12,165 nucleotides of DNA, from contig DAIENX010000023.1 in the NCBI GenBank assembly GCA_027340875.1, forward strand, positions 1-12,165, in the 5' to 3' direction. How positions within the stretch are numbered: position 1 is the first letter of the stretch; each line of letters opens with the position of its first letter. The notes under the pieces were generated by a model. It did not search any database. It was not told the DNA's origin and saw nothing but the letters and a program-made list of their open reading frames with translations. Shown here piece by piece: positions 787 to 11,721 of the stretch. The stretch is from Elusimicrobiota bacterium. GTDB lineage: Bacteria; Elusimicrobiota; Elusimicrobia; Elusimicrobiales; UBA9959. The position numbers and the translations under genes are program-made.

Positions 787-1338
787 TTATTCCTTGCCGC
801 GGAGCTTCATGACCTCGTCCCTGGTGCGCAGCTTCTTCAGCGCGTCGATGGTGGCATAGACGGAGTTGAACGCGTTGCGGGTGCCGAGGTTCTTCGTCAG
901 GATGTTCTTGACACCGGCCGCTTCCAGCACGGCGCGCACGCCGCCTCCGGCTATCAGGCCGGTGCCGCCCACGGCGGGCTTCATCCACACCTTGCCGGAG
1001 CCGAACTTGCCCTCCACCTCGTGCGGGATCGTGAAGTTCTCGATCGGGAACTGGAACATGTCCTTGCGGGCGCCGGCGGTGCCCTTCTGGATCGCGCCCT
1101 GCACCTCGTTGGACTTGCCGAGGCCGGCGCCGACCTTGCCGTTGCTGTCTCCGACCACTACAAGGGCGTTGAAGGAGAAGCGCTTGCCGCCCTTGACGAC
1201 CTTGGTAACGCGGTTGATGACGACGGTGACGACCTTCTCTTCTTTCGCGTCGGTCAGGTCGAGTTCCATCGCCTCTCCGGGTTTGCCCTGGGCGCTGAGT
1301 TCCTTGCTGGTCTTGAGCTGTTTCTGGTTTCTGAGCAT
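787..1338 (-). CDS. rpsE: 30S ribosomal protein S5 with an N-terminal extension. Preferred start 1338; alternatives are 1371 and 1269.
   Basis: [24 protein letters not shown]...[29 protein letters not shown] 8 nt before the ATG at 1338. Confidence 0.96.
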
Positions 1339-1354
1339 TTTGGCTTCTCCCTTA

Positions 1355-1395
1355 GGCCGCTTGATGAGCATAGCTCTTGTGCGGCACAGACATAG
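1355..1395 (-). repeat. Copy 1 of a 41-bp duplicated module (rplR-rpsE spacer); contains mini-ORF 1393..1352, [13 protein letters not shown]
   Basis: Minus strand CTATGTCTGTGCCGCACAAGAGCTATGCTCATCAAGCGGCC; 32/41 ungapped identity to 7979-8019. Confidence 0.75.
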
Positions 1396-1396
1396 T

Positions 1397-1759
1397 CTAG
1401 AATTTCAGGCCGGCTTCGCGGGCCGCGTCGGCCAGCGCCTTGATGCGGCCGTGGTAGATCCTGCCGCCGCGGTCGAAACATACCTCGGTCACGCCCTTGG
1501 CTACGGCGCGCTTGGCGAGCAGCGCACCCACGACCTTCGCGGAGGCGATGCTCTTACCGGACTTCAGCTTGCCCTTCAGTTCCTTGTCCACGCTGGAGGC
1601 GGCGACGAGGGTGGTGCCCTTCACGTCGTCGACGACCTGCGCGTACAGATGCTTCGCGCCGCGGTAAACGCTGAGGCGCGGCCTCTTGATGCCGTTCTCC
1701 AGCAGCTTGCTGCGGGAGCGGGTCTTGCGGAACTCGTATCTTTCCTGTTTGCTTATCAT
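1397..1759 (-). CDS. rplR: 50S ribosomal protein L18
   Basis: RPRLSVYR...HLYAQVVDD...[26 protein letters not shown]; synteny. Confidence 0.98.
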
Positions 1760-3026: not shown

Positions 3027-3710
3027 TTACTTCTTCGCCTCGGGCTTCTTGAACGGCATGCCCAGATACTCGAGCAGCGCCTTGCCCTTCGCGTTGTCGC
3101 CGGCCGTAGTCACGAACGTAATGTTCATGCCGCGCGCCTTCGGGGACTTCTCCATGTTGACCTCGGGGAAGATGTGGTGTTCCTTGAGGCCGATGTTCAG
3201 GTTGCCGCGCCCGTCGAAGAACCGCGTGTCGAAGCCCTGGAAGTCGCGGATGCGGGGCACCGACAGCGAGACGAAGCGGTCGAAGAACTCGTACATCCTC
3301 GCGCCGCGCAGCGTGACGCGCACGCCTATAGGCATGCCCTCGCGCAGCTTGAAGTTGGAGATGGACTTCTTGGCCTTGCGGACCTGGGGAGCCTGGCCGG
3401 AGATCAGCATCAGGTCCTCCTTGGCCAGGTCGAGGGCCTGGATGTTCTCCTTGGCCTCGCTGACGCCTATGTTGATGACGATCTTGGTCATCTTCGGGCA
3501 GGCCATCGGGGAGGTCAGGCTGAAATCCTTCATCAGGGCGGGCTGCACCTTCTCGCGGTACGCGTCCGCCAGGCGGATCTTGTAGCCCTTGGGTATCGGG
3601 GCCACGGCGCCCTTGGGCACCGCGGTGAGCTCCAGCTTTTGCTGCTGGTGCTCCTTCTTGCGGGGCTTCTGCTGTTCCTTCGTCGCTTCCTTGGGGGTTT
3701 CCTTCGCCAT
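3027..3710 (-). CDS. rplE: 50S ribosomal protein L5 with a ~45-aa N-terminal extension
   Basis: PKMTKIVINIGV...ISGQAP...AKKSISNFKLREG...VTLRG...PRIRDFQG...FDGRGN...IFPE; GAGG RBS at 3717-3720 supports the long start. Confidence 0.98.
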   Translation of the reverse strand: MAKETPKEATKEQQKPRKKEHQQQKLELTAVPKGAVAPIPKGYKIRLADAYREKVQPALMKDFSLTSPMACPKMTKIVINIGVSEAKENIQALDLAKEDLMLISGQAPQVRKAKKSISNFKLREGMPIGVRVTLRGARMYEFFDRFVSLSVPRIRDFQGFDTRFFDGRGNLNIGLKEHHIFPEVNMEKSPKARGMNITFVTTAGDNAKGKALLEYLGMPFKKPEAKK

Positions 3711-7676: not shown

Positions 7677-7967
7677 TTACTTCGGCAGGTCCGTCATGTC
7701 TATTTTCTGTCCGGCCTTGACCGTGACTATCGCCTTCTTCCAGTCGGAGCGGTAGCCTTCGTAGCGGCCCACTTTATGGAGTTTGCCGGGGAGGTTCGCG
7801 GTGCGGACCGCCGAGACCTTCACCTTGAACAGGGTCTCCACGGCCTTCTTTATCTCGCTCTTGTTGGCTTTCGGGTTGACGCGGAAGGTGTAGCGGTTCT
7901 GCTCGTCCTTCGTGATCACGCTCTTCTCGCTGAGTATGGGGGCTATCAGCACTTCGGTAAAGTTCAT
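7677..7967 (-). CDS. rplW: 50S ribosomal protein L23 (start at 7967, not 8117)
   Basis: [16 protein letters not shown]...YTFRV...[18 protein letters not shown]...[18 protein letters not shown] at 7972-7978; ATGA overlap with the rplD stop. Confidence 0.97.
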
Positions 7968-8635
7968 TTTGCCTCCTTGGTCGCCTGACGTGCATTGCTC
8001 CTGTGCGGCATCGGCATAGCCGTAACGCTGTCGGCCAGGGCTTTCAGGCCGGCGGCGGTGAAGACTAGCTTGGAGTTGCGCATAGCCTCGTAGGCGTTCA
8101 GGTTCTGCGCCAGGCACCAGCCGAAATCGGCGATGTTCTTGGCGGCCACGCGGAAGTTCTTGTCCATCTTGTCGGTGACGAACAGCACGTTCTTCGCGCC
8201 GAGACCCTTGCGCAGCGCGTTGAGGGATTTGGTCTTCGCGGCCTCGAGGGCCAGGTTCTCTATGACCACCACGGCTCCGTCGGAGGCGCGGGTGGAGAGG
8301 GCCTCCAGCAGGGCCTGGCGCAGTTTCTGCTGCGGCAGATACTGGCGGAACGAGCGCGGCTTCGGGCCGAACACCACGCCGCCCTTGCGCCAGAGCGGGG
8401 AGCGGGTGGAGCCGGCGCGGGCGCGGCCGGTGCCCTTCTGCTTCCAGGGCTTCTTGCCGCCGCCGGAGACCTCGGAGCGGGTCTTCGTGCAGGCGGTGCC
8501 GCGGTGCTTGTTGGCGAGGTAGTGCTTCACAACCTCGTGGATGAAATGGGCGTCGGGCTTGGCCGAGAAGAGAACTTCCGGCAGGCTGAACTTACCCACT
8601 TCCTGTCCTTTCAGGTCGAAGAGTTTGGTTTCCAT
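7964..8635 (-). CDS. rplD: 50S ribosomal protein L4 with a ~20-aa C-terminal tail
   Basis: GTACTKTRSEVSGGGKKPWKQKGTGRARAGSTRSPLWRKGGVVFGPKPR. Confidence 0.99.
   Translation of the reverse strand: METKLFDLKGQEVGKFSLPEVLFSAKPDAHFIHEVVKHYLANKHRGTACTKTRSEVSGGGKKPWKQKGTGRARAGSTRSPLWRKGGVVFGPKPRSFRQYLPQQKLRQALLEALSTRASDGAVVVIENLALEAAKTKSLNALRKGLGAKNVLFVTDKMDKNFRVAAKNIADFGWCLAQNLNAYEAMRNSKLVFTAAGLKALADSVTAMPMPHRSNARQATKEAK
7979..8019 (-). repeat. Copy 2 of the 41-bp duplicated module; encodes the L4 tail segment MPMPHRSNARQAT
   Basis: Minus strand CTATGCCGATGCCGCACAGGAGCAATGCACGTCAGGCGACC; 32/41 identity to 1355-1395. Confidence 0.75.
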
Positions 8636-8653: not shown

Positions 8654-9442
8654 TTATTTCTTGGCCGGAGCTGCCGGCTTCTTGGCGGCCGGCTTGGCCG
8701 CGTCCTTCTTGCCCTTGGCCTTGGCGGCCGCGGGCGGCTTGGGGGTGCGCTTGTTGGTCAGAGTGATATGCACGATGCTGCCGGTGGCGCCGGGGATACC
8801 GCTGTTAACGAGTATCAGGTTCTCCTCGGGGACCACCTTCAGGATCTTCACCTTCTGCACGGAGACGGTCTCGACGCCCCAGTGGCCGGCCATGCGCTGG
8901 CCGGGGAGCACGCGGCCCAGAGAGCGGCGGGAGCCCAGGGAGCCCGGTGCGCGCTCGCGGTCGCTGGCGCCGTGGCTGGCGGGCTGGCCCTTGAAGTTGT
9001 GGCGCTTCATCGCGCCGGCCCAGCCGTGGCCCTTGGAAACGCCCTGCAGGTCGACCCACTCGCCCTCGGCGAAGCGCTCGACACCGGCCGTCTGGCCCTG
9101 GGCGGCGCCGGCAAGATCGGCAACGCGGAATTCCTTGAGGTATCTCAGGGCCGGCGTGCCGAGCTTTTTGGCAAGGCCGAGTTCGGCCTTGAGAGAGTTC
9201 TTCTCCTTCTTGTGGCCGAAACCGAGACAGACGGCCTGATAGCCGTCCTTTTCCTTAGTGCGGGTATAGGCCACGCGGCAGGGGCCGGCCTTCACGACGG
9301 TGACGGCGTGCAGGTTACCGGCGGCGTCGAAGATCTGGGTCATGCCCATCTTCTCGCCGATCAGAAATTTGTGCGCCGGGGGAAGCTGCTGGACCTCGGG
9401 CTTCGCCTCGGGGGCCGTGTTCTCTTTGTTCTCTTCTGTCAT
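8654..9442 (-). CDS. rplC: 50S ribosomal protein L3 with N-terminal and Lys/Ala-rich C-terminal extensions
   Basis: GEKMGMTQIFD...DGYQAV...SKGHGWAGAMKRHNF...HG...RAPGSLG...GRVLPGQRMAGHWG...IPGATG; AAGGAG RBS at 9452-9457. Confidence 0.99.
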   Translation of the reverse strand: MTEENKENTAPEAKPEVQQLPPAHKFLIGEKMGMTQIFDAAGNLHAVTVVKAGPCRVAYTRTKEKDGYQAVCLGFGHKKEKNSLKAELGLAKKLGTPALRYLKEFRVADLAGAAQGQTAGVERFAEGEWVDLQGVSKGHGWAGAMKRHNFKGQPASHGASDRERAPGSLGSRRSLGRVLPGQRMAGHWGVETVSVQKVKILKVVPEENLILVNSGIPGATGSIVHITLTNKRTPKPPAAAKAKGKKDAAKPAAKKPAAPAKK

Positions 9443-9713
9443 AGTTCTGCGCTCCTTGCTTTGCCTTCACGTCGGAAGACCCGGCGACGAAGCCGGGGCT
9501 TCCGGGTTCCGGAAGACGACGAACGAACCGCGCCGGGACCTTTCGGCTCCGGTTATGGCACTGCTTTATGTCTAGTTTCTATGATTAGCCCGCAGACGAA
9601 GGGAATCAAGGCCGCTGCGTCTATAGGGCCGCCGCCCGTATTCCGAAGAACGCGGCGGCGTAATAATAAAAACTTCTTTTCAAAGAAACCGCGGCGCAGC
9701 CGCGATTAACTAC
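9443..9713 (-). promoter_or_regulatory. Long structured 5' leader of the rplC operon (candidate cis-regulatory RNA)
   Basis: No plausible coding ORF. Hairpins on the minus strand: CGCGGC-UGC-GCCGCG (9690-9704), a C(UUCG)G-capped stem (9630-9660), GCCC..AGACG/CGUCU..GGGC (9588-9629), a GAAA-capped stem (9533-9552), and alternative stems (9471-9520). Confidence 0.7.
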
Positions 9714-9719
9714 AGGATT

Positions 9720-9748
9720 ATTATAACAAAACGGCCCTGCCGTGTAAA
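9720..9748 (-). promoter_or_regulatory. sigma70-type promoter of the r-protein cluster; predicted TSS about 9713
   Basis: TTTACA (9748-9743), 17-bp spacer, TATAAT (9725-9720), with an extended -10 (TGtTATAAT). Confidence 0.88.
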
Positions 9749-9755
9749 GCGCTTT

Positions 9756-10866: not shown

Positions 10867-11721
10867 TTACTTCGCGACGCTGTTTATCCAGCTGTAGGCG
10901 CCGCTCACCTTGGAATAGACGCCGTACTTGTTGGGGCGCGCGCAGCCCTCGCCCCAGCTCACCACGCCGGCGAGCACGCGGGAGGAGCCGGAGCCCATCA
11001 GCAGCGGGCCGCCGCTGTCGCCCTGGCAGGAATCCTTGCCGCCCTCTTTGTAGCCGGCGCAGATCATGCTGTCGGCCAGGCTGCCCGGATAGGCGGCCTC
11101 GCACTCGGTGCTGTTCACGAACGGAACGGCGACCTTCAGCAGCTTCTTGGAGACGCTGCCGCTCTCGCTGGTGGTGCCCCAGCCGGCGGTGGTGAAGACG
11201 GTGCCCTCGGCTATCTCGGCCGAGTTGAGCGTCACCGGCTGGTACTTGGACTCGCCGTTAAGGCGGATCAGCGCGAAATCATTGACCATCGTGTTGGAGT
11301 CCCAGCCCGGGTTCTTGACCACCTCGGCCACGGAGAACGTCTCCACGCCGGCGGTGTCGCCCTGGTTGAAGAGGCCTATCTTGACGGTCTTCAGATAGCC
11401 GCCCTCGACGCAGTGCGCCGCGGTGAGCACCCAGTTCTTCCTTATCAGCGAGCCGCCGCAGAAGTGGCCGTAATAGCCGGCCTGCAGGGAGACTATGAAG
11501 GGGAATTCGCCCTTGGTGGCCTCCACGCCGCCTACGATCTTCTCGGAGCCGAAGCGCTCGGAGGCGCTGGCCTCCACGAGCACCGGGGCAGGGCGGGAAG
11601 GAATTTCCATCCCGCGCACGGCGGGCAGGACGTTCCTGCCCGCATTGTCAAAAGTAATGTTCGCCGCGTTGGCGGGCGTCATGGACAGGGCCAGGACCGC
11701 CGCCGCTATCGTCTTCATCAT
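10867..11721 (-). CDS. Secreted trypsin-like serine protease (MEROPS S1A), pre-pro-enzyme
   Basis: Signal peptide; K|IVGG activation site; catalytic triad motifs TAAHC (His57), DFALIRL (Asp102) and GDSGGP (Ser195); Asp189 in GKDSC; VSWG; six Cys; AAGGAG RBS at 11729-11734. Confidence 0.97.
   Translation of the reverse strand: MMKTIAAAVLALSMTPANAANITFDNAGRNVLPAVRGMEIPSRPAPVLVEASASERFGSEKIVGGVEATKGEFPFIVSLQAGYYGHFCGGSLIRKNWVLTAAHCVEGGYLKTVKIGLFNQGDTAGVETFSVAEVVKNPGWDSNTMVNDFALIRLNGESKYQPVTLNSAEIAEGTVFTTAGWGTTSESGSVSKKLLKVAVPFVNSTECEAAYPGSLADSMICAGYKEGGKDSCQGDSGGPLLMGSGSSRVLAGVVSWGEGCARPNKYGVYSKVSGAYSWINSVAK

Follow-up and report, generated by a model that had tools for sequence, protein, structure and literature searches.

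Two similar stretches beside translation signals in a ribosomal protein operon of an Elusimicrobiota genome are very probably insertions of a non-autonomous, structured mobile element, which is confined to one Elusimicrobiota family and tolerated at these junctions. Both lie in the window (the whole stretch of 12,165 nucleotides that was analysed), whose content is the S10-spc operon on the minus strand, with rplC, rplD, rplW, rplR and rpsE confirmed by family models (Table 1). Both copies are covered by independent contigs, which agree fully in run X1, possibly the source sample; in run X4 contigs span copy 1 and differ from it at six positions.

In a preliminary description, positions 1355-1395 and 7979-8019 were aligned without gaps at 32 of 41 nucleotides in the same orientation, each followed by a Shine–Dalgarno sequence (SD) and the start of rpsE or rplW. 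Realignment reproduced this, with the two stretches 6,624 bp apart. The score alone is not significant, as a score of at least 32 was reached in 24 of 60 other 12-kb windows (some of which contain true repeats), and the same window also has one match of 31/41 and five of 30/41. The match is nevertheless real, because both stretches belong to one repeat family; an ungapped scan found better partners elsewhere (35/41). The supposed two-site duplication turned out to be two among 58-66 copies in the genome. The unit is not 41 bp long: the two window copies (1356-1400 and 7980-8024) measure 45 nt, and 221 of 243 copies measure 46 nt. Copy 2 had been placed ahead of the rplW ribosome-binding site; it is in fact part of the rplD reading frame. 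Empty orthologous sites also have the SD and the bases that precede the ATG, which therefore do not belong to the element.

Table 1. Positions in the window of the two element copies, their target sites and the genes around them
Feature	Position	Strand	Remarks
Element copy 1	1356..1400	-	45-nt variant without position 21; covariance model 63.6 bits (copy in training set); orthologous sites empty
Copy 1 hairpin 1	1387..1400	-	First base paired with position 13, one bulged base, 4-bp stem, TAT loop
Copy 1 hairpin 2	1356..1385	-	5-bp stem, internal loop, 4-bp stem, TAT loop; its end is the 3' end of the element
Target C (1355), ancestral rplR TAA stop (1352-1354) and rpsE SD	1347..1355	-	Kept from the empty site; same bases in empty loci, e.g. 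C85, L001
Incidental 13-codon ORF within copy 1	1352..1393	-	In rplR frame, ends at the ancestral TAA
rplR (L18)	1397..1759	-	TIGR00060 above cut-off
rpsE (S5)	787..1338	-	TIGR01021 above cut-off
Element copy 2	7980..8024	-	45-nt variant in frame within rplD; 49.6 bits (copy in training set); empty loci; contigs skipping exactly these 45 nt
Target C (7979), rplW SD and start (ATG 7967-7965, overlaps the rplD stop)	7965..7979	-	Ancestral
rplD (L4), host gene of copy 2	7964..8635	-	TIGR03953 above cut-off
rplW (L23)	7677..7967	-	NF004363 above cut-off

Copies, fold and ends of the element

An iterated nhmmer profile gave 66 matches in the genome and none in the reversed genome, and a covariance model trained on 67 rows, both window copies included, found 58 copies. 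Such scattered copies support the last option of the preliminary description, a small mobile repeat at gene ends. A relaxed pattern (0-2 control matches per genome) placed the element in 68 of the 80 genomes of the family and in 9 of its 13 genera. The strict pattern was absent from 278 genomes of other families, and the covariance model gave a single match among 137 such genomes (in G060), a chance match in coding DNA. A pattern scan of GTDB gave at least 80 matches; of the 80 listed, 75 are titled Elusimicrobia or just bacterium. Among the matches listed, four of Roseococcus type are chance hits in coding DNA, none is cyanobacterial, and one (L107:1487-1532) is a full, real copy on a 5.7-kb contig of an Omnitrophota-labelled bin, reflecting either misbinning or transfer. 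IMG/VR gave no match to the element pattern. Rfam gave 11 weak matches in the window, with none at either copy, and only tRNAs in 20 element loci. No published work pairing Elusimicrobia or Elusimicrobiota with such a repeat was found in the full-text literature, whose coverage leaves out most subscription journals, and the element has apparently not been described before.

The positions of the element are numbered from 0 (first base) to 45 (last); 12 of the 243 copies are 45 nt long. Hairpin 1 has a 4-bp stem and a TAT loop and is closed, beyond one bulged base, by the pair 0:13. One unpaired base separates it from hairpin 2, which has a 5-bp stem, a symmetric 5x5 internal loop, a 4-bp stem and a TAT loop, and which ends at position 45. 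The two hairpins abut, so that both ends of the element meet and the whole has the shape of a nicked dumbbell; when circular, it is predicted to fold as a rod. Across 67 diverse copies, 96% of the cells are paired and 8 of the 14 pairs vary on both sides; covariation scores 0.395, compared with 0.124 for shuffled and at most 0.132 for slid alignments. Template switching is reported to mirror hairpin arms, and so to produce covariation without selection (PMC8794818). Because the copies are kin and their arms can be mirrored in this way, the covariation shows that the fold is maintained and is not evidence of a host function. G.T exceeds A.C in the pairs (66 vs 32), so the strand that is mRNA-sense in the window is the likelier folding strand.

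The fold of copy 1 drawn in the preliminary description was recovered (z = -1.77; 11 of 200 shuffles are equally stable), although its 5' hairpin, hairpin 1, had been overlooked. The stem mismatches of copy 2 had been called uncompensated, which is correct for the long hairpin 2, with its two mismatches, but not for hairpin 1, where three of the five pairs differ on both sides between the copies. Taken whole, the fold of copy 2 is no better than that of shuffles (z ~0). The family has a 45-nt form, a 47-nt form and genome-specific types of hairpin 1. The 47-nt subfamily, whose hairpin 1 has a loop of 4 nt, is seen in genome G130 (loci L410, L412, L414 and L418), and a 30-nt form without the inner hairpin occurs in G000 (C71:85420-85449).

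For the analysis of ends, tandem-internal junctions and look-alike flanks were excluded, which reduced 206 canonical copies to 111 independent sites, and 114 held-out metagenome copies to 63. Position 0 covaries with position 13 (C:G in 90, T:A in 10 and G:C in 5 of the 111 sites; mutual information 0.58, null maximum 0.11). Empty look-alikes are known for 10 cases that have T or G at position 0 and C as the base following the element; in all 10, the empty site mostly has C. Contigs from three of four runs skip exactly 7980-8024 and retain 7979; with 88% likeness they probably come from relatives, and so fix the boundary without implying excision in the strain. Together, these three observations assign position 0 to the element and the following C to the target. 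The empty sites and the skipping contigs rule out a boundary model in which the element runs from position 1 to the final C. The boundary of copy 1 can be slid by up to 3 nt owing to a CTA direct repeat.

The base after the element is C in 100 of the 111 sites and in 59 of the 63 held-out ones. Position 1 equals the base after the target C in 64 of 111 sites (44.5 expected), in 52 of 99 when stop-codon targets are left out (39.9 expected), and in 50 of 63 in the held-out set. Among 26 pooled sites with an A at position 13, a T precedes the cut in 23 (background 70/174). These data show that the element inserts ahead of C, in the context (A/T)^C(A/T), and does not duplicate its target. At three sites the T of the empty site is replaced by G, a change that this scheme does not explain. 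A preference for hairpin loops is weak, with 73 of 111 rebuilt targets predicted by folding to be enclosed, compared with 58% of shuffled ones.

Filled and empty sites in the ribosomal operon

Conservation at the orthologous junctions, which the preliminary description had proposed to check, was not found: the rplR-rpsE junction is filled in only 5 of 38 genus-level loci and the rplD site in only 3 of 29. On a FastTree tree the filled loci are as dispersed as shuffled labels (5 and 3 changes), and a single gain would require 15 (rplR-rpsE) and 12 (rplD) precise losses. A rare hairpin 1 is common to four of the five rplR-rpsE copies, a pattern more in keeping with a single old insertion, or with the transfer of a filled allele between species, than with five separate jumps. 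Loss after an old insertion, or such transfer among species that occur together, may therefore contribute at this junction. The second rpsE locus of the same assembly is empty. This locus (G000 contig C85, rpsE 658-1209) is part of a second, partial spc operon whose proteins are identical to those of G023, and which likely stems from a co-binned sister strain.

Some relatives carry the element at seven further operon sites, with both orientations represented. Genome-wide, 14 sense and 17 antisense copies lie between co-directional genes. With one pattern, the density was 0.056 copies per kb in the operon (17 copies in 301 kb) and 0.0049 per kb genome-wide (503 in 103 Mb), an approximately 11-fold excess of which junction density accounts for part. 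The element is also nested in larger repeats of the same genome, of which exact empty twins are present, and within itself. It forms tandem arrays in which neighbours are identical in 7 of 11 loci, compared with 0.2% of random pairs (two spurious rows excluded). The larger repeats are modular hairpin repeats of 100-250 nt, with 10-22 copies per motif, found both with and without the element in intergenic regions of G000 (e.g. C65:173640-173850 and C13:35430-35630). Unrelated insertions, some of them heptamer arrays, occur at the same operon junctions in L007 and L038 (rplR-rpsE), L027 (rplX-rplE), L005 (rplF-rplR), and L009 and L036 (rpsQ-rplN). At the rpsE-rplO junction of L013, L019 and L024, an antisense copy separates the rplO SD from the start codon and its hairpin 1 appears to provide a new SD-like motif; the sister locus L016 is exactly empty.

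Each of the two insertions in the window has features that explain its tolerance. Copy 1 was inserted just ahead of the rplR stop and begins with C-TAG, so that rplR now ends at a stop supplied by the element, while the old TAA and the rpsE SD are unaltered. Copy 2 was inserted four codons ahead of the rplD stop with the frame kept, and L4 gains 15 residues (205-219). All five coding insertions (three in rplD, two in rpmC; at most four events) are of the 45-nt form, compared with 12 of 243 copies overall. A spliced intron could enter coding sequence regardless of frame; the frame-keeping length of all five copies argues against splicing. The pattern as observed, in which only 45-nt copies lie in coding sequence, a stop triplet is supplied at stop codons and the SD is left free, fits filtering by the host. 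Essential ribosomal operons can thus absorb mobile DNA, including in-frame peptides in L4 and L29.

The other proposals of the preliminary description, a translational operator shared by rpsE and rplW, an RNase signal or a coupling cassette, are very improbable. The copies adjoin two SDs, but predicted SD accessibility is not reduced (0.68 vs 0.66 and 0.55 vs 0.41). The mini-ORF of copy 1 terminates at the ancestral stop, yet it is not retained in the other four filled rplR-rpsE junctions. Both sites are filled in L028 as well, and hairpin 1 of copy 2 is unique and fully paired, which could mean selection in place; however, relatives are empty in 33 of 38 and 26 of 29 loci, and 56 further copies lie elsewhere in the genome in both orientations. 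Neither the conservation at the orthologous junction nor the Rfam match of a ribosomal protein leader is seen at these sites. The RNA runs covered small shares of the stretch only. For these genomes, hairpins beside ribosomal protein SDs should not be taken for regulatory leaders.

Relation to known repeats and possible routes of movement

Cyanobacterial small dispersed repeats (SDR) were reportedly described by Elhai et al. 2008 (Genome Res 18:1484). Their length is about 20 bp (PMC2884548), and SDR5 is reported to insert precisely into HIP1 (PMC4390886). As far as these accounts go, the element resembles them in being very small, gene-less and dispersed, in its precise insertion, with empty sites, into other repeats, in its tandem copies, and in that the mobilising enzyme is unidentified in both. 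Compared by description, it differs in its length of 46 nt, its two hairpins with a covarying end pair, its (A/T)^C(A/T) target and its host range outside the cyanobacteria.

REP/REPIN-RAYT systems, in the cited accounts, likewise consist of short, structured intergenic repeats without target duplication, with C-T/C-A junctions and nested clusters (PMC8266576, PMC3116915, PMC3733652, 10.1101/279083). The junctions of the element are C-(A/T), with the boundary 5' of the C. The preliminary description would have recast a scattered repeat as a generic REP, but this does not hold: the element has no GTAG/GTGG or CGTC hairpin foot and no flanked RAYT gene, and is a single unit at filled sites, or a direct tandem, whereas a REPIN is an inverted doublet. 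No element-flanked Y1 gene was seen in 30 loci, and copy number does not correlate with Y1 count. IS200/IS605 derivatives share the absence of target duplication and the filled/empty pairs expected of precise excision; in this genome, however, no left end of the element is attached to a longer element, and the element is absent from the 30 Y1 loci examined.

Mycobacterial MIRUs are also short mobile repeats at operon gene junctions, tolerated with translation signals preserved (PMC12548453). In that account they lie at start codons with a coupled ORF, whereas the ORF in our element is incidental and not the same from one to another of the five filled rplR-rpsE sites, antisense copies are numerous, and other repeats hold the majority of copies. 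The Rickettsia RPE, like other repeats fused in frame to genes, adds a peptide to housekeeping proteins, as seen here for L4 and L29, but is described as ~105-146 bp long (PMC3184786), while the coding insertions of the element are rare and of the 45-nt variant. Bacterial MITEs, as described, are non-autonomous mobile units below 200 bp (PMC2229807), from which the G+C-rich element differs in its lack of terminal inverted repeats, TA ends and target duplication, partial identity being limited to 1-3 nt. Resemblances to group II intron domain 5, hammerhead and attC were set aside, because register and size appear not to fit. The features that define REP/REPIN, terminal-inverted-repeat MITEs, MIRU, introns and ribosomal protein leaders are thus lacking in the element; as far as described, it behaves like the cyanobacterial SDRs and, at gene junctions, like MIRUs and RPEs.

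A length of 46 nt excludes a double-stranded circle. Since the fold also brings the two junctions together, nicking and joining of a single strand is the simplest fit. An enzyme acting in trans would release the folded strand by a cut at each end and join it to accessible single-stranded DNA, such as that of hairpin loops or heavily transcribed operons. We infer tentatively, and with no great confidence, that this enzyme resembles the HUH/Y1 peel-and-paste transposases. IS200/IS605 elements favour the lagging-strand template; for our element, the replication-strand counts are 12:18 and 10:12 (from codon skew on draft contigs, and noisy). REP transposases have a conserved C 5' of the cut, whereas the folding strand here has it 3' of the cut. 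They are reported to cut at CT and CA, selected by a guide base (PMC8266576), and IS608 to insert into highly transcribed rrn genes (PMC5027513).

No gene for a mobilising enzyme was identified, and clustering of 784 neighbouring ORFs gave no recurrent partner. No copy lies in 30 Y1 loci (88 kb; 30 of more than 200 Y1 matches), copy number and Y1 count show no correlation (rho 0.13, p 0.27), and the nine genomes without Y1 carry 12 copies at the median. The genome's single Y1 gene (L041:1474-2115, G000 C111) is RAYT-like but below the NF047646 cut-off, and lies between 21-nt inverted repeats unrelated to the element. Two small GIY-YIG genes, considered as mobilisers, have a larger repeat on one side and no copy of the element.

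A conservative short-core recombinase acting on the folded strand (IS110-, serine- or tyrosine-type), or host repair or template switching without a dedicated enzyme, is a doubtful alternative. Both junctions are often C-(A/T), like a 2-nt core, but the core is mismatched at position 1 in about one third of the sites. IS110 is present in 23 of 80 genomes and only as a broken piece here, and the two tyrosine recombinases of the genome have a length that suggests XerC/D-like integrases. Hairpin slippage between such repeats easily explains precise loss, as in L016, empty between the filled L013 and L019, but leaves gain at new sites unexplained.

An RNA route is the main rival to the Y1-like enzyme but appears rather unlikely. 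Among the candidates, only the group II intron reverse transcriptase (RT) follows copy number. A processed 46-nt transcript would be copied into DNA nicks or breaks by this RT, with template jumps at 1-3 nt of microhomology and repeated jumps giving tandem copies. RT-bearing genomes have a median of 15 copies (n = 26), compared with 6 in the others (n = 44; p 0.012, uncorrected for kinship), a trend that overall mobile-DNA load could also explain; IS110 lacks a comparable one (median 7, n = 23). RT is found in none of the 10 genomes of element-free genera, and group II introns flank all 12 RT loci scanned, yet those 12 loci hold no copy of the element. Neither RT nor DUF559 genes were found in this genome, which is 92% complete and has one of the two highest copy counts. 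The identical tandem neighbours, the short identity of the 5' end with the target and the excess in a highly expressed operon would fit this route; the presence of both orientations in the operon argues against an mRNA target, and no source of defined RNA ends is known.

This family makes the movement of repeats below 50 bp testable: it offers exact ends, a fold backed by covariation, hundreds of target sites with empty twins, and element-target base correlations confirmed in a held-out set, and a folded 46-nt oligonucleotide can be offered directly to candidate enzymes. The element could, although we consider this combination improbable, be a minimal transposon: a 46-nt single-stranded dumbbell whose variable bases help to pick the target. 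In this reading, the enzyme moving it would be one with no established link to repeats of this kind, heavily transcribed operons would attract it, and ribosomal proteins would time and again have gained a 15-residue tail segment from it. If its own bases do choose the target, it would be a very small programmable insertion system.

Other features of the window

Upstream of the operon, at 10867-11721 on the minus strand, a gene resembles a secreted trypsin-type serine protease, with weak NCBIfam matches only. The operon begins with rplC, with no rpsJ ahead of it (9442-9750). Nested GC-rich hairpins immediately upstream of rplC (9470-9555), where Rfam gave no match, may represent a leader or a further repeat. 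L3 and L5 have terminal extensions of low complexity, in which Lys, Ala, Glu and Gln abound (8654-8740, 9370-9442 and 3590-3710). rpmD is absent between rpsE and rplO (750-786), and this short rpsE-rplO junction is common to the relatives compared.
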